Below the pieces are notes generated by a model. That model was not told the origin of the DNA. It ran no database searches and was given only the letters and a program-made list of their open reading frames with translations. Source: Anaerolineae bacterium (GTDB taxonomy: Bacteria; Chloroflexota; Anaerolineae; Promineifilales; Promineifilaceae). Taken from it: 64,000 nt of DNA. The position numbers were made by a program, and so were the translations under genes. Location: the NCBI GenBank assembly GCA_023954475.1, contig JAMLHW010000019.1, forward strand, positions 2,768 to 66,767, in the 5' to 3' direction. Position 1 is the stretch's first letter; each line of letters starts with the position of its first letter. Positions 1-64,000 of this stretch are shown here, one piece after another.

Positions 1-1448
1 CCCCGTTCCCAATTGTGACCCGATCCGGCCAGCAGGTCATCGGCAGCCGACGGCCCCCATGATCCGGGTTCATAGTGGGCGAGAGGTGGGCCATCGTCAG
101 CTTCCCAGCCGTTGATAATGGGATCGATAATGCGCCAGGCCCGCTCGATATTGTCCGCACGTGTGAACAGAGTGGGATCGCCCTCAAGTGCTTCGAGCAA
201 CAGCTTTTCGTATGCTTCCGGTATCGGCGCGTTGCCAAACGAGTCAGCATAGTGAAATTCCATGTCGACCGACTTCATCGTGGCTGCAGTCCCCGGCTGT
301 TTGGCTTCAAAGCGCAGATGAATCCCTTCGTCGGGCTGCACGCAAATGGAGAGTAAGTTGGGTCTGGGCGTATACGGTTCCGGCAAAGGGAACATATTGT
401 GTGGTGGGCACTTGAACTGAACAGCGATTTCTGTGCTCTTGTCCGCCAGTGCTTTGCCGGAGCGCAGGTAAAATGGCACACCTTGCCAACGCCAATTGTC
501 GATGTAGAGGCGGAGCGCAGCAAAAGTCGGCGTTTTCGAGTTCGGTGTGACATCTTCACTATCGAGGTAGCCGTCGTATTGAGCCAGGACGGTGTTGGCG
601 GTGAGGTTGTCGCCGTTTATCGGCCGAATCGCGGCAAACACCTTGCTTTTTTCATTGCGAATCGCATTCGCCTCAAACGAACTCGGTGGTTCCATCGCCA
701 CCAGACTCAACAATTGTAACAAGTGATTCTGAAACATGTCGCGCAGCACGCCGGCTTTATCGTAGTAGCCTGCACGCCGACCGACATCGACCGATTCTGC
801 TGCCGTAATCTGCACACTTTCGACGTAATTGCGATTCCACAGCGGTTCAAAAATAGTATTGCCGAAGCGGAACACGAGAATATTCTGCACGGTCTCTTTC
901 GCCAGATAGTGGTCGATGCGGTAGATTTGCGATTCGTCCAGTTCGGCGTGAATGGCATCGTTGAGGGCTTCGGCCGATTTAAGATCATGTCCGAACGGTT
1001 TCTCGATGACAACGCGTCGCCAGCCGGATTTTTCGTGTACCATGCCCGATGCTCCCAGGTGAGCAATGGTTTCGGCAAAAAAGCGCGGCGCAACGGCGAG
1101 ATAATAGAGTCGGTTGGCGACATCGCCTTCCTGTTGCTTCAGAAAATCGTCGATAGCGCGATAAATATCCGGCTCGTTTAAGTTGCCGGGAATGTAGTGA
1201 ATAGTCGGCGCGAAGGTGTCCCAAATCGCCGGATCGAAGGTATCCGGTGTAAATTGTTGCAAGCCAGTGCGGAGTTTTGCACGAAATTCGGCCGAACTAT
1301 ATGCTCGCCGTGATGATCCGACCACGCGAAAGTTGGCCGGCAGGCGCTCTTTCACGTGCAGATTGTACAAACCTGGAATCAATTTGCGCCAGGTCAGGTC
1401 ACCCGATGCGCCGAAAATCACAACCGAAGTCGATTTACTGTCACTCAT
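1..1448 (-). CDS. zwf: glucose-6-phosphate 1-dehydrogenase; 3' end lies beyond the left edge (missing from the supplied ORF track because it runs off the window)
   Basis: Own minus-strand translation from ATG 1446-1448 gives [43 protein letters not shown] (G6PD NADP motif GASGDLxxRKL). In-frame [14 protein letters not shown] lies around 890-930 (G6PD signature RIDHYLGKE). The start overlaps the gnd stop as TAATG. Confidence 0.9.
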
Positions 1449-2359
1449 TATTCCTCTGCCTTCTTCACCGCATGGCCGCCGAATTGGTTGCGCATGGCGG
1501 CGAGCAATTTTGCCCAATATTGCGTGTCGTCTCGGCTGGCAAAACGCATTTGCAGCGCCAATGTAATCACTGGCGCAGGGACACTCAGATCAATTGAATC
1601 GAATACCGTCCAGCGTCCTTCGCCACTATCTGGCACAAACCCTTCAATGCCGCTCAACTCCTGGTCGTCGGCCAGCGCAAGCGCCGTCAGATCGAGCAGC
1701 CACGAGCGAACCACGCTGCCGTAGCGCCAGATTTCAGCAATTTGATGTAGATCGAGTCCGAACTCAGTTTTGGCACGCAAAATATCAAACCCTTCGGCAT
1801 ATGCCTGCATCATGCCGTATTCAATGCCGTTGTGTACCATTTTGGTGTAATGGCCGGAACCGCGTGGCCCGACATGTCCCCAGCCTTTGTCGGCAGCCGG
1901 TGCCAATGTTTCCAATACAGGACGGATATGTGCCACGGCGTCATCGGCGCCGCCAACCATCATGCTGTACCCTTCAGCCAACCCCCATACGCCGCCGCTT
2001 GTGCCGACATCAACCATATAGATGCCTTTATCGGCCAATGTATCACCGCGCTGGATAGTATTTTTGTAGTTGCTGTTGCCACCGTCAATGACGATGTCAC
2101 CCGGTTCCAGCAGGTCGCCGAGTGTGACGAGGACGCCGTCGGTAGGTTTGCCTGCCGGAACCATCACCCAGACAGTGCGCGGCGCCGACAGCTTGTCGAC
2201 CAATTCGCTGATTGATGCGGCTCCGATTGCGCCGTGGGATTCGGCCGATTGCACCGCCTCTACACTCAAATCCGACACCACGACGCGATGACCACCGTTT
2301 AGCAAGCGCTGCGTCATATTCGCGCCCATTTTTCCCAGACCGATCATGCCGAGTTCCAT
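1448..2359 (-). CDS. gnd: 6-phosphogluconate dehydrogenase, decarboxylating, short (about 300 aa) form
   Basis: 303 aa ORF with N-terminal Rossmann motif [16 protein letters not shown] and 6PGDH-like core ([23 protein letters not shown]). Lies between pgl/GDE and zwf in one operon. Confidence 0.85.
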
Positions 2360-2442
2360 TGTATTCTCCTTTGGGAAGCGTTTAGCTGTTGGCTATTAAC
2401 TTTGATGTTCCATTCTTCAGATGCAGTGAAGGTTGGTTGAAC

Positions 2443-4413
2443 TTACGTCGTCGGGGTGGTTAATGCCCAACAGCGCAACAGTTCGGCAACCGTCCAGGCC
2501 TGAGCATTACAGCCGCGTGGCGTGAACGGTGCATCGCCGTCGAAGATTTCACTCAGACTGCCGACGCAGTGGCCGTTCAGGTGGCGCAGCAACGGCTGAA
2601 GAAATGAACCCGCTCGTTGTGCGTCGTGGTAGACGCGCAGATGGGCAGCGACGTAAGGCCCGATCAACCAACCCCATGTCGTGCCTTGATGGTAAGCACC
2701 GTCACGGGTTATACGACTGCCGCCGTACACGCCGACGTAATCAGGGTGCTCGGGAGACAGGCTGCGCAAGCCGTGGGGGGTCAGCAAATGGTGCGTACAC
2801 GTATCGACGACTGCTTTCTGTTGCGCTGGTGTCAGCGGTGAGTAAGGCAGTGAGACGGCAAAGAGTTGATTCGGCCGAAGTGCATCATCGTTCCCGTCAG
2901 GCCCGTCAATGACGTCAAAGCAATATCCTTTCGCCGCATTCCAGAATTTGTTGAAATGGGTTTGCACGAGATCGGCCAATTGTTCGTATTTGCTTGCGCT
3001 GAGACCGGCAATCTGGGCGAAATCGCACATGATGCGCAGCGCATTGTACCAGAGGGCACTGATCTCAACTGGTTTGCCGATGCGCGGCGTCACGACCCAC
3101 AAGTCGACTTTGGCGTCCATCCATGTCAATTGTACGCCGGGTGAGCCACCGTAAATCAGACCATCGGCCGAATCAGCTTTGATGTTATAGCGCGTACCCT
3201 TCAAATGCCAATCAATAATGTCGTCGAGTACGATGAACAGCTCTTTGATCAGCGCCCCATCGCCAGTTTGTGCATAATACGCGCGAATGGCTTCAAAATA
3301 CCACAAAGTCGCGTCGATTGTATTATATTCCGGTTGCTCACCTTCGTCCGGGAACCGGTTGGGCAACATGCCTTTGTCGACATAGTGCGCAAACGTCTGC
3401 AAAATGCTGCGGGCGACGTGGGAGCGACCTGTATGCAATGTCAGGCCTGGCAGGGCGATCATGGTATCGCGGCCCCAATCACTAAACCATGGATAACCGG
3501 CAATGATGGTGTGTCCGTCACCGGCGGGTGTCGTGCGCTTGACGATAAACTGGTCGGCTGCCAACACCAATTGATCAATGGCCGCCGTCTTGTCGGGTAG
3601 ATCGTCTCCGGCAGAGAGCAGGGCATCATCCAATGACCGGCGTACTTCGTAGGCTGTCTGGCCGTCCAGATCGGGCGCAGCGTCGGTTGTTGCAACCAAT
3701 GTCAGCGATTCGCCCGGTTCGAGAACGGCCGAAAATGTGCCGGCGAGTAAATTATCGTCATGGTCACCCGTGTGCCGGTAATGTTCGATAGCGGCGTAGA
3801 ATTTCTTTTGCCAGATGTAGCGCGGTTGTACCGATCCGCGATCGCTGTAGACGTAATAGGGTGCCATGCCGACAGCACCGGTGAGTTGTAATCCGCCATC
3901 GACTGGTGTGACGGCCAAGTGGGCAGTGGCAGCCTCTGTGTGGCTGTGATAGTCGCGATGGTTGACGAGCGCGTCGAGGACGAGTGCCAATGGCCCACTA
4001 CCGCGCACAAAGTTGTAGCGTACGTAAGTTGTATTTGCGCCGGCCTGCATCCAGATGCGTTTTTCGAGTACGGCGTCGGCAAAGGTGTATGTCCAGACGG
4101 GTGTTGACCCTTCGAGGCGGAATTGTTCGATGTGCGCATAGCCGTTGGGTGAGACGATGTCTGGCCCCCAGCGATTGGCAAATACTGGGTAGCGCTGCCC
4201 TCCGTACCCGGCAGTGGCTTCGAGCTTGGTGACGAGCAGCGTGCGCCCCAGCGGCGGCTTGAGCGCGGCGATGAGCAGCCCGTGGTAGCGTCGACTAAGG
4301 ATGTCGGAGACGGTTCCCATAGCGAAGCCGCCGATGCCGTTGGTGACAAGCCATTCCCGGTTTTCGGCCGAAACCAGTTCATTACACGTGTCGCGTCCAA
4401 ATTCGATAGTCAT
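2443..4413 (-). CDS. glycogen debranching enzyme / amylo-alpha-1,6-glucosidase family protein
   Basis: 667 aa ORF with GYPWFSDWGRDTMIALPGL and WMDAKVD...VTPR motifs typical of the GDE C-terminal (alpha/alpha)6 family. ATG at 4413 (MTIEF...) gives an ATGA overlap with the pgl stop, so it is preferred over the track start at 4446. Confidence 0.85.
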   Translation of the reverse strand: MTIEFGRDTCNELVSAENREWLVTNGIGGFAMGTVSDILSRRYHGLLIAALKPPLGRTLLVTKLEATAGYGGQRYPVFANRWGPDIVSPNGYAHIEQFRLEGSTPVWTYTFADAVLEKRIWMQAGANTTYVRYNFVRGSGPLALVLDALVNHRDYHSHTEAATAHLAVTPVDGGLQLTGAVGMAPYYVYSDRGSVQPRYIWQKKFYAAIEHYRHTGDHDDNLLAGTFSAVLEPGESLTLVATTDAAPDLDGQTAYEVRRSLDDALLSAGDDLPDKTAAIDQLVLAADQFIVKRTTPAGDGHTIIAGYPWFSDWGRDTMIALPGLTLHTGRSHVARSILQTFAHYVDKGMLPNRFPDEGEQPEYNTIDATLWYFEAIRAYYAQTGDGALIKELFIVLDDIIDWHLKGTRYNIKADSADGLIYGGSPGVQLTWMDAKVDLWVVTPRIGKPVEISALWYNALRIMCDFAQIAGLSASKYEQLADLVQTHFNKFWNAAKGYCFDVIDGPDGNDDALRPNQLFAVSLPYSPLTPAQQKAVVDTCTHHLLTPHGLRSLSPEHPDYVGVYGGSRITRDGAYHQGTTWGWLIGPYVAAHLRVYHDAQRAGSFLQPLLRHLNGHCVGSLSEIFDGDAPFTPRGCNAQAWTVAELLRCWALTTPTT

Positions 4414-5197: not shown

Positions 5198-6376
5198 TTA
5201 ACGAAAGATGGCGTCGCGGCGGGCAACGCGCTCATTGAGCATGGTCTGAATCGTGTGATGCGTCTTTTTGGCTAGTTGGGCGACAATGTCGTCATTTTCG
5301 GCCGAATCCGTTTCAAAGCTGCTCACTGACAACGGTTCACCAAACTCAATCGTCCATTTGGTTGGGTATGGCACAGCAGCCAACAATCCCAGCCACGGAA
5401 ACCGCAGCGTAATGGGAAAATAAGGAATACGCAGCCATTCGGCAATAGAACGGGCGTTGTGGACGGCGACATAGGTTTCCTCACCGCCAACAACGGCAAC
5501 GGGGATGATCGGCGCAGCGTGCCGCAAAGCCAGTCTGACAAAGTCGTCGTTGCGGAACGGCGTCATCTGGTAGCGATCCCAGAAGAGTTTGCCGGAACCG
5601 CGCAATCCTTCGGGGAAGACGGCAATTAAGTGACCTTGTTCGAGTAAGGCAGCGGCATTTTCGGCCGAATCGCTGGCATACCCGGTTTTATTGAGCAGCG
5701 ACGCCAGAACAGGCACATGTGCAAGCCGCGATGCATACAGAGGACGCACCATGCGCTCGTCGAAATGTTCTTTGGCAACTGCTGTGGCAATCATAGCGGC
5801 GTCAAACGGCAGTTGGCCGGAATGATTGGCGACCAGGATTGCCGCTTCACCGTCGTTGGGAACGTGTTCGATACCCAATGTCGTGACACGCCAGTAACGC
5901 GTGTAGAGAAAGTCGACCAATGGGCGCACCGCGTCGTTAAACTCCGGATCAAATCCCCATTCGTCCGTCTCGAAATCACCGGCAGCCCGTCGTTTGGCAG
6001 TGTCCACGTAACTCTGCACCGTATAGCTGATGAGAAACCAGATACCGCGATATGTGTCGGCGTCGAACGGATCGACATTGGCCGCGATCACGCCCAATTG
6101 ATCGAGCCAGCCCTGCGCGAACGATGGCGTCAGACGACGCACACCGCGTCCGATTTGATCGAAGGCGACTTCGGCCGAAAATCCGAGTGGTACGAACTCC
6201 GGATCAATGGCACGCAACCGCTCGATCACCTTGTTGAGTTCGTCGATTAACTGCTCACGCAGCGCCGTTACATCGACTTCGTCGTCAATATGTACGTCAT
6301 TGTCAGCGGTATCCGCGGCATGTCCGTTGACGTGTATTGCTTCATCTTCCATATAGTCTGTCCTAACGCCGCGCAT
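5198..6376 (-). CDS. PlsC-like glycerolipid/lysophospholipid acyltransferase with about 170 aa N-terminal extension
   Basis: 392 aa ORF with the acyltransferase block VANHSGQLPFD and the FPEGLRGSGK block. The N-terminal part carries the DTYRGIWFLISYT motif shared with the adjacent SAP protein. Alternative ATG at 6352. Confidence 0.75.
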   Translation of the reverse strand: MRGVRTDYMEDEAIHVNGHAADTADNDVHIDDEVDVTALREQLIDELNKVIERLRAIDPEFVPLGFSAEVAFDQIGRGVRRLTPSFAQGWLDQLGVIAANVDPFDADTYRGIWFLISYTVQSYVDTAKRRAAGDFETDEWGFDPEFNDAVRPLVDFLYTRYWRVTTLGIEHVPNDGEAAILVANHSGQLPFDAAMIATAVAKEHFDERMVRPLYASRLAHVPVLASLLNKTGYASDSAENAAALLEQGHLIAVFPEGLRGSGKLFWDRYQMTPFRNDDFVRLALRHAAPIIPVAVVGGEETYVAVHNARSIAEWLRIPYFPITLRFPWLGLLAAVPYPTKWTIEFGEPLSVSSFETDSAENDDIVAQLAKKTHHTIQTMLNERVARRDAIFR

Positions 6377-7104: not shown

Positions 7105-9273
7105 TTAATGGCCGCGTTTGCGCAGGAAAACGAGTCCGGCGCTTACGGCAGCGGCGGCTGCGCCGGCAGCTGCACCAGCAACGACCAATTTGCTCTTGTC
7201 ATCTTTGTCGTCGCTTATCTCATAGCCTGCTTCGGCATCGAGGCGCTTGAGTCCTGCGGCTGCTTCGGTCTGCACTTGAGCGAATTTTTCCGGATCGGCA
7301 CGCAAGGCGTCAGCCAGCGCGCGTTTTTCGGCTAAATCTTCATCGGTCAGGAAGTGGCCGTGGCTGCGGATGCCGGAAAGTTCCAGACCGTGCTTCTTGT
7401 AGAGCCGGTAGATTTCTTTGACGCGATCGATTTCGATTTCGCGGCCCAGCGTGTAATCTTCGAAGAGGCCTTCCATGGCCAGCAAGGCTGTCTCGGCAAG
7501 GCAGGCATAGGCGACACCTGGCGGCAGGCCGATGTCGTATCCGTAATCAGGATTGCCGGGGAGCAGGATTTCGCCGGATTCGATGACCAGCATGTCGGGA
7601 CGCAGCGCGGCTTCTTCGGCCGTTATGTCGGGTGGACGCGCGATGTCACAGACGACGGCTCCCGGTTTGCATTTGCTGACGTCGATAATGCGTTGGTTGA
7701 GTGCTGTCGTGGTCGTGACGATCAGGTCGGCGTCGGCAACATGATAATCGGCCGAAGTGCTAATCGTCACATGGGCGTCCGGCGTTTCTTCTTCAATCGT
7801 CCGTTTCAGCGCGATCAATTTTTCCGGGCGCGGTGCCACGAGCGTGATATTGGGGATGGCCTGTGCCAGTAAGCGCGAGCAAACAGAGCCAATTGATCCG
7901 GTTGCGCCGATGACCATGACATTGCCCTGGCGCGAATCTTCCAGCCGGTGCCCCATCTGTACCAATGCCTGTTTGGCCGTTTCCAACGTAGCGGCAACGG
8001 TGAGGCTGTTGCCCGACGTAATGGCGATGTCGGATTTTTGCGCGACGGTAATGCCGGCATCGCCGACCACTGACGTAAACGCGCCGAGGCCCATCAACCG
8101 CGCGCCGCGCCGTTCCGCCATCCGGGCGCAGTAAATCAACTGGCGATAAATGAGACCTGGCTCAAGACGCATCAGTTCCTTTGGCGTGCCGCCTAAACCG
8201 TAGAGATAGCCTTCAATTTTTTGGCCGGTTGCCGGACTTTCTATGCCGGTGATTTTGCTGATGTAAAACGGACGGATGCGGCTGGCAGCGCGTTCGACGA
8301 CAGCGTCAGGCAAATATTTAGTAAAGGCGAACCGCGGGCTATTGTGGATGAACTTGATGCTCAGTGGGTGGATGACAAAAGCGAATCGGTTAATGCCGGC
8401 GTCGTCGCTGAGGAAACGCATGCCCGGTGACCAATTGAGATCGGCCATCAGGTTGAGGTATGTGTCTTCACTGAGCGGCGCTGATTGGTCTTCGCGAATG
8501 GAGACCAGTGCGGCTTCAAACACGGCTGCACCGTGTTCGGCCAGATCGTTATCGGTCAATGACGGCATGGTAGTGACGAGTACGGATGCATTGCGACTTT
8601 GTAAATCGGCGACATCTTCGTCAGTAGCGTATTCGGTGACGATGGTTTTGCTTTTGAGTGAGGCGGGGCTATACCGGCGAATAGCACCCATATCGCCGGC
8701 AATGATATCGGCCGATTTGAACATTTCTTCGTCGCGCTTGACACCTGCCGTACCGGCAGCAGGGAAAATTAAACGGAACGATTGATCCGCCATGCGCTTG
8801 AGACTGAACAAAATCGGTGCGTTGGGATCATAAATGCGCGCATCGGCCGCGTGTACTTCTTCCGTGTACTGTCGGAATGCTTTTGTCAAGCCACTGTGAT
8901 TGAGTGACGGCACGAGCAAAATCTGTTTGCGTGACCAGATGCCGGGTTGATTATCGTCGGCCAGACGCAATGCCCAGCGTTCCATGGCAGCACGCACGCC
9001 ACTGCCATCGACGACTGGCGTTTCCTCCGCGATAGCAAACAGCTTCGCGCCTTCGACATGGGTCACGCGGTCGCTGCCGATGCGCAGCGTTTTGGCGACA
9101 CCTTCGAGCGCGATGGCATCGACTTTGCCGTCGAAATCGCTGATATGGGCCGACATGACGGCCAAATCTTTGTCACAGCCGATGTGTTCGACTGAAATGG
9201 TGTTGTCGAGGAGGCGTATTGCTTCAGTACGGCGCTCTGTTGGCCGGAAATGCAGGACGACGATTTTGTTCAT
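7105..9273 (-). CDS. fusion protein: unknown N-terminal domain (about 290 aa), acyl-ACP reductase (AAR)/shikimate-DH-like NAD(P) domain, and a C-terminal transmembrane tail
   Basis: 722 aa ORF. The central region matches remembered blocks of cyanobacterial AAR (LGAFTS vs GGFTS, TSGNSLTV vs TTGNTHTA, VIGATGSIGSVCSRLL vs VVGATGDIGSAVCRWL, ACLAETALLAMEG vs ACFAEAMLLEFEG). The tail GAAAGAAAAAVSAGLVFLRKRGH is hydrophobic. AAGGAG lies 9 nt upstream of the ATG. Confidence 0.6.
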   Translation of the reverse strand: MNKIVVLHFRPTERRTEAIRLLDNTISVEHIGCDKDLAVMSAHISDFDGKVDAIALEGVAKTLRIGSDRVTHVEGAKLFAIAEETPVVDGSGVRAAMERWALRLADDNQPGIWSRKQILLVPSLNHSGLTKAFRQYTEEVHAADARIYDPNAPILFSLKRMADQSFRLIFPAAGTAGVKRDEEMFKSADIIAGDMGAIRRYSPASLKSKTIVTEYATDEDVADLQSRNASVLVTTMPSLTDNDLAEHGAAVFEAALVSIREDQSAPLSEDTYLNLMADLNWSPGMRFLSDDAGINRFAFVIHPLSIKFIHNSPRFAFTKYLPDAVVERAASRIRPFYISKITGIESPATGQKIEGYLYGLGGTPKELMRLEPGLIYRQLIYCARMAERRGARLMGLGAFTSVVGDAGITVAQKSDIAITSGNSLTVAATLETAKQALVQMGHRLEDSRQGNVMVIGATGSIGSVCSRLLAQAIPNITLVAPRPEKLIALKRTIEEETPDAHVTISTSADYHVADADLIVTTTTALNQRIIDVSKCKPGAVVCDIARPPDITAEEAALRPDMLVIESGEILLPGNPDYGYDIGLPPGVAYACLAETALLAMEGLFEDYTLGREIEIDRVKEIYRLYKKHGLELSGIRSHGHFLTDEDLAEKRALADALRADPEKFAQVQTEAAAGLKRLDAEAGYEISDDKDDKSKLVVAGAAAGAAAAAVSAGLVFLRKRGH

Positions 9274-13551: not shown

Positions 13552-13686
13552 GGTTTGCTCCTGTTGTATTGCGTATGTACCCTGTCAGAGATTAGAACGT
13601 GTGTTTGATAATCTGGAAACAGTATAGGCGATTTTCGGCCGAAACTCAAGCGACCCAACTCGGCACCACCAATGGCGATTGTAGCA

Positions 13687-19190: not shown

Positions 19191-19236
19191 GAAGAGGGGC
19201 TATGGTCGGCCGAAACGGCGTGTTTAACGCAAGATG

Positions 19237-28418: not shown

Positions 28419-28424
28419 TTGCGC

Positions 28425-53910: not shown

Positions 53911-55674
53911 TTACCTGGTTTCTGCTAACTGCTCCACGATAGCCGGCGGCGCGTTGATCGTGACCGGTGTGTCCGGCAAGACGACTGTGTGATAGTCTTG
54001 ACCGGCAGGTCTGTTCGCATCGAGAATATCGACAGCAGCGCCACTTTCGGTGCGGACGATTTGGAACGCGTAATCGATCTGTGTAAACGGCGGTACCATT
54101 AATTCGAGTTCGAAAAGACTTTCGGCCGATTGCAGCGGCGTATAAGCAACGACACCATCCAGTGTGGTGTCGAGGGGCAGCCACTCTTCCGGTGGTAATT
54201 GCCACCCATTGATGCCCCAGATAAAGATAACGGCAGCCGCGCCGGGCGCATGATAGCTGATTTTTTGCACAATTGGATCAGTACTCATCGTCTCGGAAAG
54301 CGTCAGGTCGGCAAACTCACTAATCCCGGCCGCGTGCAGCATGCGGATTTTGGCTTCAACTTGCGGCGGTTCCCACCAGTGGATCAGGAATTCCTGATGG
54401 CGTTCCGCGATAATGTTGACGGGTGTTCCTGCCGCAATGTCGTTTTCAATAGCCAGCATACCATCGCGATACCAGTCGCCCCAGCGCAATCCCAATAAAT
54501 GATTAGGCACTAATGCAGCCGCAATGATTACGGCCATCACGGTCGGTATCCACATCTGCCACCGCAATCGGCCGAAAATCAGCCAGCAAAAATAGACGGC
54601 ACAAAGAGTCAGCGCAGACAACAGCACATAGCGCAGAGGCCAGAAGTTGTCGCGTTGAATATGAGCCGCACGCCCATACCCCATGGCAACAGTGAACAAG
54701 GCCATATTGCTGAGAAATACGAGTATGCCGATTGCTTGATGGCGATTTGGCTCGTTTAGTCGCCGCAGTTGTAGAAGCAGCAAGCCAAACGTGAGTGCCA
54801 CCAGCCCAGCTGATACGATGAAAGCGACTGCCCACCCTGGGATGGCTGCCGGCCCCCAGCCGAGCACCAGAAACTGCATTGCCGCCACGATGGATGGCAG
54901 GAGACCAGGATTGGGCGGATTCCAGGGTGGATGCACATAACCGACAAAATACAGTAACGTCACCATGCCGGCGGTTACAGACGCACCCCACAGCAATCCG
55001 ATTGTCAGCGCTGATCCCTTTTTCCGCCATTGGCGCCAGCCGCAAACTGCGTTCCAGATTGCCAACAACGGCACGAACAACAGTCCTGTTGCGCCGGTAA
55101 GCGGTAGCAAGAGCAGGATCACTCCCGCCGCCAACGCAACAATCGGCCGATCCATTGCAGGACGCAGCACAAGGATCAACAAATATACAGCCACCAACTC
55201 AATCGAAACGACGAAGCTGAGCTGCCATGTCCAGAATAAATTTTCCCAGTTGCCGGCATGGAGGATCAAGAGAGGGAAAAAGACATCGGCAATGTGACTG
55301 TAACCGCGAATGCGCCGGGCTGCCAACATCATCGCAGCGGCGAGTAATGCCAGCGTGGCAATATTGAAGAGCATGCCTGACCGAAAATCACCGTGTGATA
55401 TTGCGAGCAGCGCCAACATAATCAAGCGCGGCAGGGGCACACGATGTTCGTTGTTTTGCGACCACAGCCATTGCCAAAAGTTTGGTTCGTTGCCGGTAAA
55501 CGGAGCGACTAATTGCCAATCTTCGGCCAGTGGGATGTTTCGGCCGAAACGCAGAAACAACACCAGCGCCGTCAGCAGCATGATTGCCCACACACCCCAT
55601 ACGACCCAGGCGTGCCAGCCCGGCACCGATTGACGGGCTACTTGTCGCTCATTGAGCGCAGCAGAACTATTCAT
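53911..55674 (-). CDS. uncharacterised polytopic membrane protein with extracytoplasmic C-terminal domain (possible GT-C-type enzyme)
   Basis: About 587 aa with more than 10 hydrophobic helices, the loop WSQNNEHRVPLPRL, and a C-terminal soluble part of about 130 aa. ATG 55674 overlaps the upstream stop. Confidence 0.5.
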   Translation of the reverse strand: MNSSAALNERQVARQSVPGWHAWVVWGVWAIMLLTALVLFLRFGRNIPLAEDWQLVAPFTGNEPNFWQWLWSQNNEHRVPLPRLIMLALLAISHGDFRSGMLFNIATLALLAAAMMLAARRIRGYSHIADVFFPLLILHAGNWENLFWTWQLSFVVSIELVAVYLLILVLRPAMDRPIVALAAGVILLLLPLTGATGLLFVPLLAIWNAVCGWRQWRKKGSALTIGLLWGASVTAGMVTLLYFVGYVHPPWNPPNPGLLPSIVAAMQFLVLGWGPAAIPGWAVAFIVSAGLVALTFGLLLLQLRRLNEPNRHQAIGILVFLSNMALFTVAMGYGRAAHIQRDNFWPLRYVLLSALTLCAVYFCWLIFGRLRWQMWIPTVMAVIIAAALVPNHLLGLRWGDWYRDGMLAIENDIAAGTPVNIIAERHQEFLIHWWEPPQVEAKIRMLHAAGISEFADLTLSETMSTDPIVQKISYHAPGAAAVIFIWGINGWQLPPEEWLPLDTTLDGVVAYTPLQSAESLFELELMVPPFTQIDYAFQIVRTESGAAVDILDANRPAGQDYHTVVLPDTPVTINAPPAIVEQLAETR

Positions 55675-59168: not shown

Positions 59169-61853
59169 CTATTTTATGGGCAGTGATTTGTTGGTTTGGT
59201 TGTGACGGGTTGCTTCGGCCGAAAAACCTCGCCGTCCCACAGGTACATACGGTTCACTGCGACCTAGACGTTCAACCCGGCGCTGTGACCGCCACAACGC
59301 CCACGGCCCCATCAGTTGACCGGCGATTTCCAGAGCATGATACCGTAACGGATAATCAGTTTGACGCAACAACCAGAGAATCAATCGGTAAACGTGCCCA
59401 ATCGGCAATTGTACCAGCAGATAAAACAGGCTGCGCCGATCATGCTGCTTCAACCAGATCAGCAGATGATAGGCAACATGTCCTTTACTGTAATTGAACA
59501 GTTGCCGCCGTAACGCCGCTGTGCTGGTTCGATGCTCATGCCAGACATAGGCAGTCGGTTCATAGACAATCGTATTACCGGCACGCAAAATCTGGTAAAA
59601 CGCATACGTATCTTCACTGCAACCGGTTGGTGAGCCTGCGCCAAGCGCTTCTTCGAGCAGGCCAATTTCGGGATGACTGTAAATAGTAGCACGAAATGCG
59701 GCATTTGCCGTCGCGCCTAATTCCCAAGTCTTCAATCCCCGAAAGCGTGTGGCGACAAACCAGTCATAAGCCGTTCTGCGCGGTTCAAAGCCGCGTCCGA
59801 GTCCGCCATATTGCTCAAACAATTGTTGAGCGCGATTATCCAGTCTGTACGGCAGGACGTTGCCTGTCACGGCCATGACATCCGGATCGACAAAAGGTGC
59901 TACGAGGCGCTCCAGCCAATCGGGAGGCATGACGATATCATCATCGGCGCACACGATGATGTCGCCGCTGCTGGCCACAATGCCCGCGTTGCGCGCATAG
60001 GAAAGACCGGGCCGCTTCTCGGTGACATAGATAACCTGAGGGAAGTCGGTGATAACAAATCGGCTTTGACCCGACATCGGGTTGTTGTCGACGACAATCA
60101 GCTCAACCGTGCGGGAGGTTTGCTGTTGTTGAATGTGTTGCAGGCAGCGGCGCAAAGCGGCTGATCGATCGTAGGTTGCCACGACAATCGAGACAGATTG
60201 ATCGTCGGGCAGCGCCGCTAATACTGGTTGAACAGGTGCTGGGCTTCTGTCGTCTGTTTGTTGTGTGAGCCGGGCCATCAGCGCGCTCGTTGCATCCTCT
60301 GACACCTGACCGGTTACGGCGGCTAGAATCTCAGGGGTTAATTGATCCGCAATGCCGTCCATGAATTCTTTATCACTGATGGGATGATGGAAGTTGTCAA
60401 ATTCGGCCGAACCCAGCAGCTTACCCTGCCATGAGACAAACACCTGAACGCGATGATACGTTTCCGTATCCGGGGGCACGGCGACTGACTCGCTCAGATC
60501 GATTTGATGCACCAGCCAGGCGTTTGGCGGTGCTGCGTGCGGGAACTTGTGAATTCGGCCGACTGGCGGCAGCTTTCGGCCGAATTGTCGGGCGCGGCGT
60601 TTCGCCTGGCGTTGGGCACGACCGTACCGCAACATACCGCGAAACGTTCCCCAGAACTCAGTCACAATCAAATCACGCGGAAACGTATACGACGGCTGCA
60701 GCGACAGCAAAAAACGGCGGCCATACCACCACAGCCACCACCAGATCATCAAATACGTGATGCCGCGCCATTCCCGTGGATAGTGGCGCAAATTGCGCAC
60801 GATATGGGCATAAAATCCGATGCCGTTGTTGGTGATTTGTGTGCGCAGTTCACCGTATGTCTGCCGGTGGCGATGTCGGACGATTGCCTGCGGTTCATAG
60901 ACCAATGTCAAGCCTTCGTGCACCACGCGAAAGAACATATCCAGATCGCCGCCACCGTTGGTGAGTGTGCCGACGTCGAGTGCCGGGTCAAAATAGCCGA
61001 TTTCCTGGAAAATGGCTGTGCGGAACGCCATGTTGGCACCTGTGCCAAAGCGCCCGCTGCCGACGAAATACCGCCCGTTAAACCCGGAGAGGAACCGGTA
61101 TCCGCGCGTCCATTCCCGACGATAACCACGCCCAAAACCGCCGTAGGCTTCAAAAAGCTGCTGCGCTTCCGTTTGCAGTTCCAGCGGTAATACCAGGCCG
61201 GTAACGGCGGCGACATCGGCATCGTCACGGAATAGACGTGCCACTGCCCGCACCCAGCCCGGATCGACGATGACGTCGTCATCTGTAAAGGCGATGACTT
61301 CGCCGTATGCTTCGCTGATGGCCTGGTTGCGTGCCCAGTTCAGTCCGGGGATCGGCTCGCAGATATAGCGCATTTCGGGAAATTCGGCCGATAACAACGC
61401 CTTGGTCGCATCGTCAACCGGCGCATTATCAACTACCAATATATCCAGATGGGGGTAGTCCAATCGGCGCAAGGCGCTGAGACAATGGCGCAGTGAGGCG
61501 GAGCGGTTACGCGTACAAACCGCTACGGTGACCAGCGGCCAGTGATCTGTTGCAGGAGATTCGGCCGATTTTTCAAGTGACGGCCACTCGCAACCTGAAT
61601 CAGGTGGGTGTTCAGCTAGCTTGGGCAGCGCATCGCGGACGAGGAGCCTGACCGTATCAATGCTTATCTGCTCACAGAGTGCTTGACGGATTGTTTCTGC
61701 ACTGCAAACGCCGTTTTTTACACCGACCTGGACACAACCCAGCGGTGTGCCGTACCACCGCACCAATACATTGACAGCGTGCCCTGTTAATTGGTGCAGC
61801 GTTGGAACAGAATCTGCCAGATCGATATCACGTACGTCAATGGGTCTAAACAC
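59169..61853 (-). CDS. dual-domain GT2 glycosyltransferase (two tandem GT-A modules)
   Basis: Two copies of the GT2 pattern. The first is VTVAVCTRNRSASL...VVDNAP...AFTDDDVIVDPGW. The second is VSIVVATYDRSAAL...VVDNNP...VCADDDIVMPPDW. Confidence 0.85.
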   Translation of the reverse strand: MFRPIDVRDIDLADSVPTLHQLTGHAVNVLVRWYGTPLGCVQVGVKNGVCSAETIRQALCEQISIDTVRLLVRDALPKLAEHPPDSGCEWPSLEKSAESPATDHWPLVTVAVCTRNRSASLRHCLSALRRLDYPHLDILVVDNAPVDDATKALLSAEFPEMRYICEPIPGLNWARNQAISEAYGEVIAFTDDDVIVDPGWVRAVARLFRDDADVAAVTGLVLPLELQTEAQQLFEAYGGFGRGYRREWTRGYRFLSGFNGRYFVGSGRFGTGANMAFRTAIFQEIGYFDPALDVGTLTNGGGDLDMFFRVVHEGLTLVYEPQAIVRHRHRQTYGELRTQITNNGIGFYAHIVRNLRHYPREWRGITYLMIWWWLWWYGRRFLLSLQPSYTFPRDLIVTEFWGTFRGMLRYGRAQRQAKRRARQFGRKLPPVGRIHKFPHAAPPNAWLVHQIDLSESVAVPPDTETYHRVQVFVSWQGKLLGSAEFDNFHHPISDKEFMDGIADQLTPEILAAVTGQVSEDATSALMARLTQQTDDRSPAPVQPVLAALPDDQSVSIVVATYDRSAALRRCLQHIQQQQTSRTVELIVVDNNPMSGQSRFVITDFPQVIYVTEKRPGLSYARNAGIVASSGDIIVCADDDIVMPPDWLERLVAPFVDPDVMAVTGNVLPYRLDNRAQQLFEQYGGLGRGFEPRRTAYDWFVATRFRGLKTWELGATANAAFRATIYSHPEIGLLEEALGAGSPTGCSEDTYAFYQILRAGNTIVYEPTAYVWHEHRTSTAALRRQLFNYSKGHVAYHLLIWLKQHDRRSLFYLLVQLPIGHVYRLILWLLRQTDYPLRYHALEIAGQLMGPWALWRSQRRVERLGRSEPYVPVGRRGFSAEATRHNQTNKSLPIK

Positions 61854-61975: not shown

Positions 61976-63577
61976 TCAAAACTCCTTATCTGCATTGCGG
62001 GGAATCTGCGAGACTCGATAAACGGCGTGATCTGGCTGTTTTGCCTTTACTTCATGTGTTTGAGGTTGCAGGAATGACTGTACGGATTTGTCTGATCGCT
62101 CGATCACAAGCATAAACAACATGGCGTGCAGGACAAACATCGTTGCAGTAAACAACATGATTAAAGGTGACAGCGTCGCCTGGCGCACGATGCTGAAGCC
62201 AAGACCAGCCAATAACAGGGTTACTGTTGCGAACTGCGGGATAAGCCAGCTTAAATTGAAACGATCTGCTTTAACTTTAGGTGTCGGCCGAAATCCCAGC
62301 GGCAGACGTATACATGCCATCACCCATGACAATGTATAAATGGGCCACGTGTTGAACACCAGAACAAACGGCTTGTACTGCATGCTGGAGCGTATTGATT
62401 TGTGCTGCCACTCTGCTAAAACCAACTGTCGAATCAAGGTGAACACAACCATCAGCGGGATGAACACGAGTAGATAGCTTTCAAATAACTGTCGCAGCGC
62501 AGCATTTGTTGAAAAAAGCACGATGATGGTTGCCAGAAGATGGGCAGCAATGAATACGCCCGCCCAATAGTAAGTCATTCTAACCGCATAGGATAGTTTT
62601 TGTCCGAGTTGCAATCGGCCGAATACGTTGGGATAAGCGGTAATCAGCAACTCAAAGACACCGCGTGACCACTTGAACTGCTGATTGAACCACGCTGTCA
62701 AATCAGGCGGTGCGACTCCGGGGGCAAGCGGTTCGTGCACATAACGCGATTGCCAGCCCGCCGCATGCAGCGCAACCGATGTTGCCAGATCTTCGGCCAA
62801 ACCCGGTTGATAGCCGCTGATCGATTCGAGGGCTGTACGTCGAATCAGCGCATTGCTGCCGATCAATGTAGCGCTGTTGATGCGATCGGCGCCGACTGAT
62901 GTCGGATTGTAGAAATCCATGCTGCTCTCACCGGCAGCTTGAGCAACCCAGCCGTCATTGTCGTTAGCAAATGTCAACATCACTTGCACAAATCCAACCG
63001 CAGGATCAGCAAAATACGGCAAACTGCGCAATAGAAAATCAGGTTCCGGTGCGTGATCAACATCAAAAATGACGATGATGTCGCCGTCGGTACGGTCTAG
63101 CGCGGCATTGAGATTGCCCGCTTTTGCATCGTCATTACCTGTGCGTGTCAAATAGCCGATGCCCAGACGGCTTGCCATTTGTTCCAGTCGGTAATCTGCT
63201 CCATCGTCGAGCAGCCACGTTCGATGGGCACCGTGCATGTTGTGGGCGGCAAGCACGGCGCGTTCGATGAGTGCGGGTTCCTCACCACAGGCAGTGATGA
63301 AAACATCGACACGCAACTGTGTTGTCAGGGGTATTGTGGTGTGCGGAGCGCGGTGGGCGGCAAGGTAGAGCGTCCAGTTTCCTACCATCTGTACCAACGT
63401 GTAGATCAACGCGGCGACAAACGGAATGAGCAGCCAACTTGAGTAAGCGACGCCCTGTGTCAACCACCAGGTAATGTAAATTATCAAGAAAAGGACACCG
63501 GTTGCAATAATGGCTGTGTCGCGTACGATTTTGGCCGTTTTGCGGCGTTTTTCTTTATCAATAATAGTGCTTTCCAT
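61976..63577 (-). CDS. processive GT2 beta-glycan synthase (cellulose/chitin synthase-like), no PilZ domain seen
   Basis: DDGAD, KAGNLNAAL, IFDVDHAP, AEDLATSV and QQFKWSRG (QxxRW) motifs, with N- and C-terminal TM bundles. Confidence 0.85.
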   Translation of the reverse strand: MESTIIDKEKRRKTAKIVRDTAIIATGVLFLIIYITWWLTQGVAYSSWLLIPFVAALIYTLVQMVGNWTLYLAAHRAPHTTIPLTTQLRVDVFITACGEEPALIERAVLAAHNMHGAHRTWLLDDGADYRLEQMASRLGIGYLTRTGNDDAKAGNLNAALDRTDGDIIVIFDVDHAPEPDFLLRSLPYFADPAVGFVQVMLTFANDNDGWVAQAAGESSMDFYNPTSVGADRINSATLIGSNALIRRTALESISGYQPGLAEDLATSVALHAAGWQSRYVHEPLAPGVAPPDLTAWFNQQFKWSRGVFELLITAYPNVFGRLQLGQKLSYAVRMTYYWAGVFIAAHLLATIIVLFSTNAALRQLFESYLLVFIPLMVVFTLIRQLVLAEWQHKSIRSSMQYKPFVLVFNTWPIYTLSWVMACIRLPLGFRPTPKVKADRFNLSWLIPQFATVTLLLAGLGFSIVRQATLSPLIMLFTATMFVLHAMLFMLVIERSDKSVQSFLQPQTHEVKAKQPDHAVYRVSQIPRNADKEF

Positions 63578-63734
63578 AATCGGTATGAATCAATATGCAA
63601 TGTTTGAAGCAATAAGTCACGAATGCGGACCAATAACATGACACAAGTCCTACGCATTTTCGGCGCGATCGTAGCACATTTTCGGCCGATAACGTAGCGA
63701 CTGACTCACCCCAACGCAAACCTTCTGGTCAAAT

Positions 63735-64000
63735 TCACACGATATGGCTACTGGTCATGCGCATTTTACTGCCTGAATCGTGATTGGCGGGACATGCATA
63801 GTCAAACTGCAATTTTACAACCATTTTATAATCAAATTCGGCGGTAAAATTCCTTGCTTTTGTGCTACACTGTAGGTGTTCAATCAGTACCGGGGTACTG
63901 TAAAACGAATTGAAGTTCAAAACAGCATAGGGAAATTGTGTGGTCATTTTGACCGCTTTGTCGCGCATGTCCGCGTAGTGCCGGTCTGCACTCGCACAGG
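63735..64000 (-). CDS. hypothetical protein, C-terminal part only (open frame continues past the right edge)
   Basis: The track ORF 63735-63968 stays open upstream to position 64000 (..CASADRHYADMRDKAVK..). The segment is low in GC and no family was recognised. Confidence 0.35.
   Translation of the reverse strand, partial: CASADRHYADMRDKAVKMTTQFPYAVLNFNSFYSTPVLIEHLQCSTKARNFTAEFDYKMVVKLQFDYACPANHDSGSKMRMTSSHIV

Follow-up and report, generated by a model that had tools for sequence, protein, structure and literature searches.

The DNA considered here, referred to as the window, is a stretch of 64,000 nucleotides (positions 2,768 to 66,767 of the forward strand of contig JAMLHW010000019.1, GenBank assembly GCA_023954475.1) from an Anaerolineae bacterium of the phylum Chloroflexota. 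The gene content of the window is that of ordinary chromosomal DNA from an Anaerolineae metagenome-assembled genome (MAG) and includes zwf-gnd-pgl together with genes for a glycogen debranching enzyme, for PcrA, for a STAND kinase and a P450, for homogentisate/fumarylacetoacetate catabolism, and for Wzm/Wzt with glycosyltransferases; a protein with 100% identity to this PcrA is encoded by an 'Anaerolineae bacterium' MAG at NCBI (GCA_023954455.1; see below). In our own gene map, from which all gene calls given below are taken, 51 open reading frames (ORFs) span 92% of the window. Scattered through these genes and the spacers between them is the octamer TCGGCCGA, such that the window carries a highly iterated palindrome (HIP) of the type represented by HIP1 in cyanobacteria, with the iterated unit being the 12-bp palindrome WWTCGGCCGAWW. 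The analysis drew on these 64 kb of genome and on approximately 50 kb of conspecific and congeneric contigs.

Exact word searching located TCGGCCGA 90 times in the window, corresponding to 1.41 copies per kb. This is precisely the number that an earlier note, prepared by reading the sequence alone, had given as approximate, with every start listed there lying within 1 nt of the actual position and only five being shifted by one base (true starts 46829, 55540, 56681, 60403, and 62615). In 100 dinucleotide shuffles of the window, 1.67 ± 1.26 copies were expected (maximum 6), while Markov models of orders 0–3 predicted 1.35–4.69 copies and models of orders 0–4 trained with the word masked predicted 1.2–2.9. 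The excess over expectation is thus some 20–70-fold, a range that includes the 50-fold arrived at by hand in the earlier note, where a G+C content of 57% had been assumed; the measured value is 54.5%. Indeed, TCGGCCGA is the most frequent 8-mer of any kind in the window, with the runner-up among palindromic octamers, TGCCGGCA, appearing only eight times. Inside ORFs lie 88% of the copies. Synonymous codons were also shuffled within each of the 51 ORFs, thereby preserving the protein and codon inventory of each gene. In 300 such shuffles, 7.8 ± 2.5 genic copies were obtained (maximum 16), as compared to the 79 observed. With the observed-to-expected ratio remaining at least 10 in this test and under the higher-order models, and with flanking sequences that cannot be aligned (see below), the signal is real. 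A general avoidance of GGCC, to which the palindrome would be an exception, was considered and rejected, since GGCC outside TCGGCCGA is only mildly low in the window (0.69–0.93). Other palindromic hexamers are scarce in the window relative to a second-order model, namely CAGCTG (4 vs. 40 expected), CCGCGG (4 vs. 32), GGGCCC (1 vs. 11), GAGCTC (0 vs. 9.5), and CGATCG (14 vs. 50), possibly as footprints of past or present restriction systems.

Examination of the sequences bordering the 90 copies revealed A or T (W) at position -1 in 93%, at -2 in 83%, at +8 in 94%, and at +9 in 79% of the cases. Both immediate neighbors are W in 80 of the 90 copies, and 54 present WW on each side. The preference is seen separately in each codon phase and in spacers, with W at -1 in 82–100% of copies, as compared to a background of 39–57%. 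In the flanks of these 90 copies, no conserved position was found outside the 12-mer. Because the WW flanks are found on both sides of TCGGCCGA, the unit is the 12-bp palindrome WWTCGGCCGAWW, and because the sequence past the 12-mer is unrelated from copy to copy, the copies do not belong to a family of miniature inverted-repeat transposable elements (MITEs) or repetitive extragenic palindromic (REP) sequences. The earlier description of the flanks as T/A-biased and otherwise unrelated was hence correct, with the bias spanning two bases per side and no dispersed element being discernible.

When read in the frame of the host gene, 45 copies encode S-A-E/D, 19 encode [F/I/V]-G-R, and 15 encode x-R-P-x, with the remaining 11 being intergenic (7.4 expected, a difference that is not significant). 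The earlier tally of 46, 18, 16, and 10, respectively, captured the pattern, if not the exact numbers. The skew between codon phases is significant (chi-square p = 4e-5) and looks like a protein-level filter acting on a phase-blind process. Gaps between copies average 709 bp, with a coefficient of variation (CV) of 0.90, and fit an exponential distribution (Kolmogorov-Smirnov [KS] p = 0.41), such that periodic or regular spacing was rejected; the variance-to-mean ratio of copy number per 4-kb bin is 0.58. Likewise, the notion of paired copies serving as hairpins or terminators was dismissed, given that pairs within 40 nt are at chance level (4 vs. 4.9 expected). A structured RNA was also ruled out, as no Rfam family matches the window. 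Finally, the earlier note had described two candidate promoters in which the palindrome lies a few nucleotides downstream of a TTGAC(A/T) box (11196-11212 and 36667-36689). In a consensus scan, no promoter-like site was found to use those boxes, nor was any excess of promoter association over shuffles detected.

The copies are listed below as exact matches to TCGGCCGA, together with their reading and context according to our gene map and, in most cases, the sequence at the site. As the word is its own reverse complement, no strand is assigned to the copies; the strand given is that of the ORF.

620..627: I-R-P-I, ORF 3-1421(-), taTCGGCCGAat
970..977: S-A-E, ORF 3-1421(-), ctTCGGCCGAtt
1288..1295: S-A-E, ORF 3-1421(-), atTCGGCCGAac
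2241..2248: S-A-E, ORF 1448-2359(-), atTCGGCCGAtt
2871..2878: L-R-P-N, ORF 2443-4413(-), atTCGGCCGAag
3164..3171: S-A-D, ORF 2443-4413(-), caTCGGCCGAat
4364..4371: S-A-E, ORF 2443-4413(-), ttTCGGCCGAaa
4463..4470: I-R-P-K, ORF 4410-5150(-), ttTCGGCCGAat
5298..5305: S-A-E, ORF 5198-6376(-), ttTCGGCCGAat
5661..5668: S-A-E, ORF 5198-6376(-), ttTCGGCCGAat
6171..6178: S-A-E, ORF 5198-6376(-), ctTCGGCCGAaa
6904..6911: S-A-D, ORF 6411-7073(-), gaTCGGCCGAag
7748..7755: S-A-D, ORF 7105-9273(-), aaTCGGCCGAag; S-P-D in the L016 orthologue
8708..8715: S-A-D, ORF 7105-9273(-), taTCGGCCGAtt; W-A-D in the L016 orthologue
9912..9919: S-A-E, ORF 9464-11107(-), ttTCGGCCGAat
10620..10627: S-A-E, ORF 9464-11107(-), ttTCGGCCGAaa
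10809..10816: S-A-E, ORF 9464-11107(-), atTCGGCCGAaa
11205..11212: intergenic, ttTCGGCCGAaa; first of the two unsupported promoter sites
12159..12166: I-G-R-K, M14 peptidase ORF 11282-12961(+), aaTCGGCCGAaa; I/L-G-E/Q/K in relatives
12368..12375: S-A-E, ORF 11282-12961(+), atTCGGCCGAag; P-V/L/T-E/A/D in relatives
13635..13642: intergenic, ttTCGGCCGAaa
15425..15432: S-A-D, ORF 14573-15439(+), tcTCGGCCGAta
15587..15594: S-A-E, PcrA ORF 15542-17818(+); T-A-P/G/D/E in most relatives, conserved in L371 and L372
16752..16759: F-G-R (TTC GGC CGA), PcrA; F-N/A-R in most relatives, synonymous non-site TTT GGC CGC in L372
16841..16848: S-A-E, PcrA; P-A-E in relatives (CCGGCCGA in L009, L012, L018, and L021)
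19024..19031: intergenic, atTCGGCCGAag
19206..19213: intergenic; CCGGCCGA in a 98.9%-identical MAG (L370)
19648..19655: S-A-D, ORF 19348-22758(+), ttTCGGCCGAtg
20274..20281: N-R-P-N, ORF 19348-22758(+), aaTCGGCCGAat
21059..21066: F-G-R-T, ORF 19348-22758(+), ttTCGGCCGAac
25228..25235: S-A-D, ORF 24931-26079(+), ttTCGGCCGAta
25805..25812: I-G-R-I, ORF 24931-26079(+), taTCGGCCGAat
26589..26596: intergenic, atTCGGCCGAaa
27023..27030: S-A-E, ORF 26660-27160(+), gtTCGGCCGAac
28647..28654: S-A-D, NYN ORF 28419-29228(+), atTCGGCCGAta; mostly T-A-D in relatives
29130..29137: S-A-E, ORF 28419-29228(+), atTCGGCCGAaa
31361..31368: I-R-P-I, ORF 31020-33074(+), atTCGGCCGAta
33110..33117: I-G-R-K, ORF 33080-33736(-), ttTCGGCCGAta
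33354..33361: S-A-E, ORF 33080-33736(-), atTCGGCCGAtt
33777..33784: I-R-P-K, ORF 33751-34140(-), ttTCGGCCGAat
34115..34122: S-A-D, ORF 33751-34140(-), aaTCGGCCGAat
34825..34832: intergenic in our gene map, aaTCGGCCGAct
35156..35163: S-A-D, ORF 34864-35649(-), aaTCGGCCGAaa
35525..35532: S-A-E, ORF 34864-35649(-), gtTCGGCCGAat
36682..36689: intergenic, atTCGGCCGAta; second of the two unsupported promoter sites
36905..36912: N-R-P-I, P450 ORF 36756-38090(+), aaTCGGCCGAta
37850..37857: F-R-P-M, ORF 36756-38090(+), ttTCGGCCGAtg
37883..37890: N-R-P-K, ORF 36756-38090(+), aaTCGGCCGAaa
38633..38640: S-A-E, ORF 38098-39090(-), atTCGGCCGAaa
39100..39107: intergenic, tcTCGGCCGAaa
39510..39517: F-G-R-N, ORF 39254-41008(+), atTCGGCCGAaa
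40034..40041: S-A-E, ORF 39254-41008(+), ttTCGGCCGAaa
40442..40449: S-A-E, ORF 39254-41008(+), atTCGGCCGAat
40678..40685: Y-R-P-M, ORF 39254-41008(+), taTCGGCCGAtg
41200..41207: S-A-E, ORF 41053-42666(+), ttTCGGCCGAac
41549..41556: F-G-R-I, ORF 41053-42666(+), ttTCGGCCGAat
43168..43175: S-A-E, ORF 43051-43548(+), gtTCGGCCGAga
44116..44123: intergenic, between convergent genes, first TAATCGGCCGAA unit
44132..44139: S-A-D, 3' end of ORF 44128-45318(-), second TAATCGGCCGAA unit
46017..46024: F-G-R-P, FAA hydrolase ORF 45396-46661(-), ggTCGGCCGAat; L-G-H/E in relatives
46799..46806: S-A-D, ORF 46684-47637(-), caTCGGCCGAta
46829..46836: S-A-E, ORF 46684-47637(-), ttTCGGCCGAaa
46883..46890: S-A-E, ORF 46684-47637(-), atTCGGCCGAat
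47341..47348: I-G-R-F, ORF 46684-47637(-), aaTCGGCCGAtt
47405..47412: S-A-E, ORF 46684-47637(-), ttTCGGCCGAga
49210..49217: S-A-D, ORF 49038-49523(-), aaTCGGCCGAtt
49352..49359: H-R-P-M, ORF 49038-49523(-), caTCGGCCGAtg
49471..49478: S-A-E, ORF 49038-49523(-), ttTCGGCCGAaa
50262..50269: F-G-R-K, ORF 49641-50285(-), ttTCGGCCGAaa
50356..50363: intergenic, atTCGGCCGAtt
50499..50506: F-G-R-N, ORF 50409-51839(-), ttTCGGCCGAac
51854..51861: S-A-E, ORF 51829-53094(-), ctTCGGCCGAaa
52152..52159: N-R-P-I, ORF 51829-53094(-), aaTCGGCCGAtt
52215..52222: N-R-P-I, ORF 51829-53094(-), aaTCGGCCGAtt
52855..52862: V-G-R-P, ORF 51829-53094(-), ggTCGGCCGAca
54122..54129: S-A-E, ORF 53911-55626(-), ttTCGGCCGAtt
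54568..54575: F-G-R-L, ORF 53911-55626(-), aaTCGGCCGAaa
55143..55150: D-R-P-I, ORF 53911-55626(-), aaTCGGCCGAtc
55540..55547: F-G-R-N, ORF 53911-55626(-), ttTCGGCCGAaa
56681..56688: F-G-R-K, ORF 55667-57217(-), ttTCGGCCGAaa
57727..57734: F-G-R-Y, ORF 57241-58251(-), taTCGGCCGAat
59215..59222: S-A-E, ORF 59169-61853(-), ctTCGGCCGAaa
60403..60410: S-A-E, ORF 59169-61853(-), atTCGGCCGAac
60555..60562: V-G-R-I, ORF 59169-61853(-), atTCGGCCGAct
60576..60583: F-G-R-K, ORF 59169-61853(-), ttTCGGCCGAat
61384..61391: S-A-E, ORF 59169-61853(-), atTCGGCCGAta
61561..61568: S-A-E, ORF 59169-61853(-), atTCGGCCGAtt
62284..62291: F-R-P-T, ORF 61976-63577(-), tgTCGGCCGAaa
62615..62622: F-G-R-L, ORF 61976-63577(-), aaTCGGCCGAat
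63682..63689: intergenic, ttTCGGCCGAta

A single tidy pair of copies, at 44116 and 44132, forms a direct 12-nt repeat between convergent genes. The region concerned (44112-44141) comprises the direct repeat TAATCGGCCGAA, with its two units lying 16 nt apart, and closely follows a separate GTGTGGCAG...CTGCCACAC hairpin, which resembles a terminator for the upstream gene. The longest palindrome-free gap, from 21059 to 25228, is not an obvious island; it falls within the WD40 portion of a gene for a STAND kinase, which bears a frameshift in the present assembly. This BTAD-kinase-STAND-WD40 gene is a single ORF of 1857 aa in assembly GCA_023954455.1, and corresponds to ORFs 19348-22758, 22755-23456, and 23426-24940 in the window. 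Small indels between the two assemblies concentrate at 22.6–27.1 kb (region 22681-24902), in addition to a 16-nt gap at 15479. The split gene, be it a real pseudogene or the result of assembly indel errors, accounts for the low coding score in this region and for part of the gap.

At TCGGCCGA sites, a DNA-level force overrides coding. No tripeptide of the window proteins is as over-represented as Ser-Ala-Glu, with 34 instances vs. 5.6 expected (6-fold). Pro-Ala-Glu, only one transition away in the DNA (CCG to TCG), is in turn depleted, with one instance vs. 5.4 expected. The TCG-GCC spelling is used in 45 of the 49 instances of S-A-[DE], as compared to 6 of the 91 instances of S-A followed by any other residue. 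Phe-Gly-Arg, enriched 4-fold, is spelled TTC GGC CGA, with CGA representing only 10% of Arg codons; the spelling NTC GGC CGA is found in 19 of the 44 instances of [FILV]-G-R, 13 of these being TTC GGC CGA. In an alignment of the window PcrA with those of 23 relatives, the palindrome sites are free of gaps, and the window reads S-A-E, F-G-R, and S-A-E where most relatives read T-A-P, F-N-R, and P-A-E, respectively. Six more alignable sites in four other conserved proteins likewise present residues specific to the window. In relatives of 78% identity, the non-site alleles are the synonymous TTT GGC CGC and ATT GGC CGC. The copies are therefore built in place by point substitution, synonymous as well as non-synonymous, often at the cost of a rare codon or an amino acid replacement.

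The same sites recur in independent assemblies, namely GCA_023954455.1, GCA_040770805.1, and Logan and JGI contigs. Over 22.3 kb, contig JAMLHX010000005.1 of GCA_023954455.1 and the window share 98.9% identity (221 mismatches). Loci L371 (PcrA 84% identical; eight copies of TCGGCCGA in 5.7 kb), L372 (PcrA 81% identical; five copies in 3.4 kb), and L493, a conspecific MAG reaching 10 kb beyond the high-coordinate end of the window (20 copies in 12.2 kb), all match the window in dialect, that is, in the letters that flank the CGGCCG core, and in density. The nearest species representatives are Ardenticatenaceae/Promineifilaceae-like MAGs, with PcrA identities of 55–67%. These closer relatives came from protein searching. 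Of two scans of metagenome contigs, one gave no relative and the other only relatives of at most 62% identity belonging to other phyla; none of the latter showed TCGGCCGA, and the cyanobacterial contigs among them showed HIP1 (GCGATCGC), such that they served as a control. HIP1 was noted in metagenome contigs L095, L098, L104, L105, L117, and L137, with the cyanobacterial-type contig L104 containing 22 copies of GCGATCGC together with 14 of TCGATCGA.

Of the 108 CGGCCG hexamers in the window, 90 are flanked by T..A. In relatives, flanks of the A..T type prevail in L007 (50 of 66), L012 (47 of 63), and L023 (42 of 63), giving rise to ACGGCCGT, of which L007 contains 50 copies in 22 kb (0.43 expected), L012 47, L023 42, L011 37, and L017 28, with densities of up to 2.2 per kb. 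The C..G form, CCGGCCGG, is favored in L016, and in L001, L010, L018, L028, and L067, CGGCCG is enriched 5–13-fold with mixed flanks. In the PcrA alignment, some core positions are common to different dialects, with the flank changed, and ACGGCCGT lineages read T-A-V where others read A/E/R-A-V. In a PcrA tree generated by quick neighbor-joining and bearing no support values, the A..T dialect forms a clade, with the window grouping weakly with a flank-free lineage. The CGGCCG core is thus common to a group of related Anaerolineae, with the flanking letters being lineage-specific. At other Anaerolineae loci (L026, L027, L029, and L030), no CGGCCG was found where 15–36 copies were expected. When L038, L050, L052, and L062 are also included, these Anaerolineae/Anaerolineaceae MAG loci contain 0 copies vs. 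5–36 expected from dinucleotide composition, a strong signature of restriction avoidance for an EagI-type specificity. As such avoidance shows, CGGCCG specificities circulate in this class, other members of which are enriched in the site.

When ACGGCCGT sites from L003-L023 were pooled (n = 261), A was found to be favored at -1/-2 and T at +8/+9, within a weaker and wider symmetric context that includes G at -4 (~50%) and C at +11 (~52%). This suggests a footprint of approximately 16 bp or, alternatively, could reflect a codon-position effect arising from mixed gene strands. Just upstream of pcrA in L007 (9598-9840) lies a 62-bp tandem repeat of 3.9 copies (94% identical), each unit of which carries AAACGGCCGTTT, the palindrome of that lineage. 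Since whole units repeat, this is not a clustered regularly interspaced short palindromic repeats (CRISPR) array. In the window itself, ORF 6411-7073(-) encodes a 220-aa protein that begins with a SAP domain (PF02037, E = 6e-11), a motif that binds DNA and is familiar chiefly from scaffold-attachment proteins of eukaryotes; the protein is conserved at the same location in the conspecific MAG.

Once completed, sites outlast neighboring sequence by far. Of eight window TCGGCCGA sites that could be aligned, seven are intact in L371 or L372 at 78% nucleotide identity, with approximately 1.2 being expected from control octamers. Similarly, in the L007/L011 and L012/L023 pairs, ACGGCCGT is retained in 78–96% of cases, as compared to 22–38% for control octamers.

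The palindromes are also carried by mobile DNA, a trait common to those of the Anaerolineae and HIP1. L165, a 14.7-kb IMG/VR contig encoding a siphovirus-type structural module (major head, adaptor, tail tube, tape measure, Dit, and tail spike), contains 11 copies of TCGGCCGA (0.36 expected), all 11 with W..W flanks. Scanning IMG/VR for the A..T pattern yielded 98 viral stretches, 38 of which contain ACGGCCGT at 0.6–4.0 copies per kb, including L292 (terminase, major head protein), with 31 copies vs. 0.24 expected. In a control scan for HIP1, 20 of 120 viral stretches (L373-L492) contained GCGATCGC at 0.9–5 copies per kb. Densities in viral contigs are comparable to those of host loci, bearing in mind that the scans pick contigs with two nearby copies, such that the values are biased upward. 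IMG metagenome 3300030397 yielded both L165, with TCGGCCGA, and L307 and L318, with ACGGCCGT; from these differing dialects among the viral contigs of one sample, hosts of both dialects coexist there. In many of the 'viral' contigs richest in ACGGCCGT (3–4 copies per kb; L272-L369, e.g., L347, L274, and L359), genes for FtsK/SpoIIIE-like ATPases, for replication initiators, and for endolysin-like proteins take the place of clear capsid genes. Such contigs could represent plasmid-like phages of Chloroflexota or else elements of a conjugative or integrative type.

The parallels with HIP1 are numerous. In both cases, the word is a G+C-rich 8-bp palindrome that occurs in genes and spacers, and its CG-NN-CG core, which is CGATCG in HIP1 and CGGCCG in the window, is targeted by restriction and methylation. 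HIP1 is, moreover, the commonest octamer, in tens-fold excess and at approximately 0.5–2.5 copies per kb (PMC5861425; PMC4390886), a range that includes the 1.41 per kb of the window; HIPs, as defined on cyanobacteria, are over-represented at least 15-fold, as is TCGGCCGA. As with TCGGCCGA and ACGGCCGT, HIP1 is conserved above control palindromes (PMC5861425) and, as recounted in a citing paper, spreads by substitution without indels (Robinson 1997). Viral carriage is also alike, at 0.75–5 copies per kb and near the level of host loci. The systems differ in word and phylum, in the outer letters (T..A rather than G..C), in the additional WW flank that yields a 12-bp unit, and in that the window contains no excess of outer-letter variants. 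Furthermore, GCGATCGC does not rank within the top 15 palindromic octamers of the window, where CGATCG is itself scarce (see above). Cyanobacterial genomes with a HIP encode a DNA methyltransferase for its core, usually an orphan, and HIP1 has the cognate methyltransferases DmtC (CGATCG) and DmtA (GATC), the counterpart of which is here hypothetical. As such, the proposal of the earlier note that this is a non-mobile, HIP1-like palindrome with a different word is supported by the shuffles, the flanks, the origin by substitution, the conservation, and the lineage variants. The published HIP variants are all cyanobacterial, namely GCGATCGC, TCGATCGA, GGGATCCC, GGCGCC, rCCGGy, GCsGC, and CAGGCCTG. 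In the alternate HIPs described by Elhai (2015; TCGATCGA, GGGATCCC, GGCGCC, rCCGGy, and GCsGC), the core is kept and outer letters are changed, such that GCGATCGC vs. TCGATCGA parallels TCGGCCGA vs. ACGGCCGT vs. CCGGCCGG, just as the 6-mer GGCGCC of Calothrix parallels the flank-free CGGCCG of L001, L010, L018, and L067. None of the published variants, however, contains CGGCCG, and the variants described here follow clades within a single order-level group, some sisters of which avoid the core fully.

Other systems were also considered for comparison. The DNA uptake sequence (DUS) of Neisseria and the uptake signal sequence (USS) of Pasteurellaceae share a density of about one per kb, a genic location in all phases, an effect on peptides, dialects, and creation by substitution. 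They are, however, asymmetric words of 9–12 nt, often found in inverted pairs that serve as terminators, whereas here the word is a palindrome, pairs are at chance level, and phages are enriched. Chi, too, is a short, over-represented, lineage-specific word that marks 'self' DNA, and HIP1 has been suggested to act in a Chi-like manner. Yet, Chi is asymmetric and co-oriented with replication, whereas TCGGCCGA is its own reverse complement and, being a palindrome, can have no orientation. Unlike REP sequences and MITEs, which can be aligned over tens of bp, are mainly intergenic, and take the form of insertions, the copies have only 12 bp in common, lie within genes in 79 of 90 cases, and present no indels relative to orthologues. 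Lastly, Dcm/Vsr of Escherichia coli (CCWGG/CTWGG) offers an example in which repair, linked to a methyltransferase, is biased such that a methylated palindrome becomes more frequent, to our knowledge the only such route to have been experimentally established. The effect in E. coli is well under 2-fold, as compared to 20–70-fold here, and the depletion of C-to-T variants expected of such a route is not consistently seen.

The spread of the palindrome could be the work of a methylation-linked substitution ratchet that acts through biased repair or recombination. This is the reading preferred here, albeit tentatively, being quite possible if short of probable. In such a scheme, a symmetric dimeric DNA enzyme would read the CGGCCG core. 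An orphan cytosine methyltransferase of EagI-like specificity is likeliest and, in light of the CGGCCG-avoiding relatives, the obvious candidate. A partner protein would read the marked site together with its flanks and steer mismatch or recombinational repair to the strand with the complete site, so that a site-completing mutation would be fixed and a site-breaking mutation reverted. The ratchet would act on any DNA replicating in the cell, phages included, and would saturate near one site per 0.5–1 kb, with a change in the flank specificity of the partner leading to a new dialect. Both the marking enzyme and the flank-reading partner are hypothetical. In favor of the scheme stand the over-representation of the word, the symmetry of the 12-bp unit, the overriding of coding, the origin of copies in place, the maintenance of completed sites, the combination of a common core with lineage-specific flanks, the presence in phages, and the circulation of CGGCCG specificities in the class. 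The scheme generalizes the ratchet model of Elhai (2015) for HIP1, with each HIP variant in cyanobacteria co-occurring with a methyltransferase for its core (PMC4390886).

Several observations weigh against such a ratchet. Were it to work one step at a time, numerous near-complete sites should accompany the complete ones. One-off variants of TCGGCCGA in the window number 32, as compared to 41–51 expected, and are thus not enriched; all twelve one-off neighbors are at or below approximately 1.7-fold, and variants changed at an outer position number 11 vs. 14.6 expected, these statistics resting on small counts. In A..T genomes, only outer-position variants are enriched (TCGGCCGT/ACGGCCGA 6.2-fold; GCGGCCGT 1.9-fold), as is the case for outer-letter variants of HIP1 (Elhai, PMC4390886). 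The C-to-T variants, again few in the window, show no clear depletion (TCGGCTGA, 1 vs. 4.6 expected; TTGGCCGA, 6 vs. 3.5; TCGGTCGA, 3 vs. 3.4), and transition variants are enriched approximately 2-fold in A..T genomes, which may argue against Vsr-type very-short-patch repair. Pfam searches of the 51 window ORFs gave no match to a DNA methyltransferase, to a nuclease of the Vsr/MutH type, or to any other candidate reader, nor was any found in the approximately 10 kb past the high-coordinate end of the window in the conspecific MAG. Scanning all fetched loci for C5-methyltransferase motifs gave matches only in palindrome-poor viral contigs. A reader of G-5-methylcytosine, as in the original model of Elhai, predicts G..C flanks (GCGGCCGC) and was rejected, since the window contains no copy of that word, with flanks being T..A here and A..T in relatives, such that only the generalized version of the ratchet survives. 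Finally, strong conservation and carriage by phages are equally expected under a selected function.

One such function, and the main rival to the ratchet, would be that of a 'self' tag for DNA uptake or recombination, read by the competence machinery, in the manner of DUS/USS in Neisseria and Haemophilus, or by a recombination helicase-nuclease, in the manner of Chi, and mimicked by phages. In this case, copies would amass by molecular drive plus selection, with dialect-bearing DNA being favored, spared, or recombined. Although we consider this rather unlikely, a density of about one per 0.7 kb, the use of all phases, the distortion of peptides, and the existence of dialects all parallel DUS/USS, the sites are strongly conserved, and phages carry the matching dialect at 0.75–4 copies per kb, as a Chi-like protective tag predicts, with HIP1 likewise appearing in viral contigs. 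An uptake/recombination tag is now favored by some authors for HIP1. Natural transformation is reported to increase by as much as 100-fold when HIP1 sites are methylated, and a role akin to that of Chi has been proposed (bioRxiv 10.1101/2024.09.10.611283; 10.64898/2026.06.24.733823). Against a tag stand the asymmetry of known uptake sequences and Chi, as opposed to the perfect palindrome WWTCGGCCGAWW, the chance frequency of close pairs of the DUS/USS terminator style (4 vs. 4.9 within 40 nt), and the lack of competence or RecBCD/AddAB genes among the window ORFs. We also know of no natural competence in Anaerolineae. A role in uptake alone does not predict enrichment in phages, and genomes with uptake sequences show a cloud of one-mismatch sites, which the window does not.

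It is improbable that the palindrome is the binding site of an abundant dimeric protein that organizes the nucleoid, chromosome, or replication, with dialects following the recognition helix. A symmetric 12-bp unit in which A/T letters border a G+C core is typical of a dimer operator, the sites are conserved, and the copies are spaced a little more evenly than a Poisson process would have them (variance/mean 0.58; gap CV 0.90), yet their spacing is statistically indistinguishable from exponential (KS p = 0.41). Nor do phages have an obvious need for host-like density. Thousands of mostly genic sites, exacted at a price in amino acids, exceed the needs of any site-specific nucleoid protein of which we are aware. 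A role in chromosome structure has been proposed for HIP1 (PMC5861425), for which no specific binding protein was detected by electrophoretic mobility shift assay, as related in a later paper (Robinson et al. 1997, via 10.64898/2026.06.24.733823). Far less probable still is a by-product of codon usage, amino acid composition, or context-dependent mutation. While TCG, GCC, GGC, and CCG are fairly common codons in a genome of 54% G+C, the synonymous shuffle leaves 79 copies facing 7.8 ± 2.5, the same W flanks accompany three phases and spacers, the rare CGA codon is used, one-off neighbors do not exceed ~1.7-fold, and sisters of similar composition differ in word. Dispersed MITE/REP copies or an assembly artefact, for which the sole support is that an exact word recurs so many times, are hardly conceivable, given that there is no similarity beyond two W per side, that 88% of copies lie gap-free in ORFs, and that the sites recur in independent assemblies. 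The compositional and mobile-element readings are, therefore, excluded.

In the full-text literature that could be searched, which includes few subscription journals, no report was found of TCGGCCGA, ACGGCCGT, or CGGCCG as iterated palindromes, or of HIP-type repeats in Chloroflexi; with such coverage, the absence of a report is no proof of novelty. The HIP1 phenomenon appears to exist in a second phylum, with a new word, a 12-bp unit, and dialects found beside core-avoiding sisters. A DNA-level process can visibly reshape a proteome, as seen in the 6-fold over-representation of Ser-Ala-Glu. The word can also serve as a lineage barcode when MAGs of Anaerolineae are binned and when phages are matched with their hosts; the exact 12-mer of the window is carried by L165.

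HIP1 has been known for more than 30 years, with no agreement on its origin and function, be it a repair ratchet, chromosome structure, or an uptake/recombination signal. The HIP literature that could be searched all concerns cyanobacteria, where one word dominates nearly the whole phylum, and comparative inference is accordingly weak. A second system with at least three or four dialects, avoiding sisters, and matching phages provides natural contrasts in which genes that co-vary with dialect can be sought. Because several dialects and core-avoiders exist among close lineages, the genes responsible should be identifiable by phylogenetic profiling, and such contrasts could test whether methylation, repair bias, or DNA exchange is the driver. 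It is conceivable, if doubtful when taken as a whole, that Anaerolineae possess a palindrome-writing system independent of HIP1 and composed of a CGGCCG enzyme and a flank-reading partner, that switches in the specificity of this partner (T..A, A..T, C..G, or none) rewrote thousands of sites together with the amino acid sequences concerned, and that the system imprints, or is exploited by, phages. If true, this would provide a mechanism for HIP-type repeats in general.

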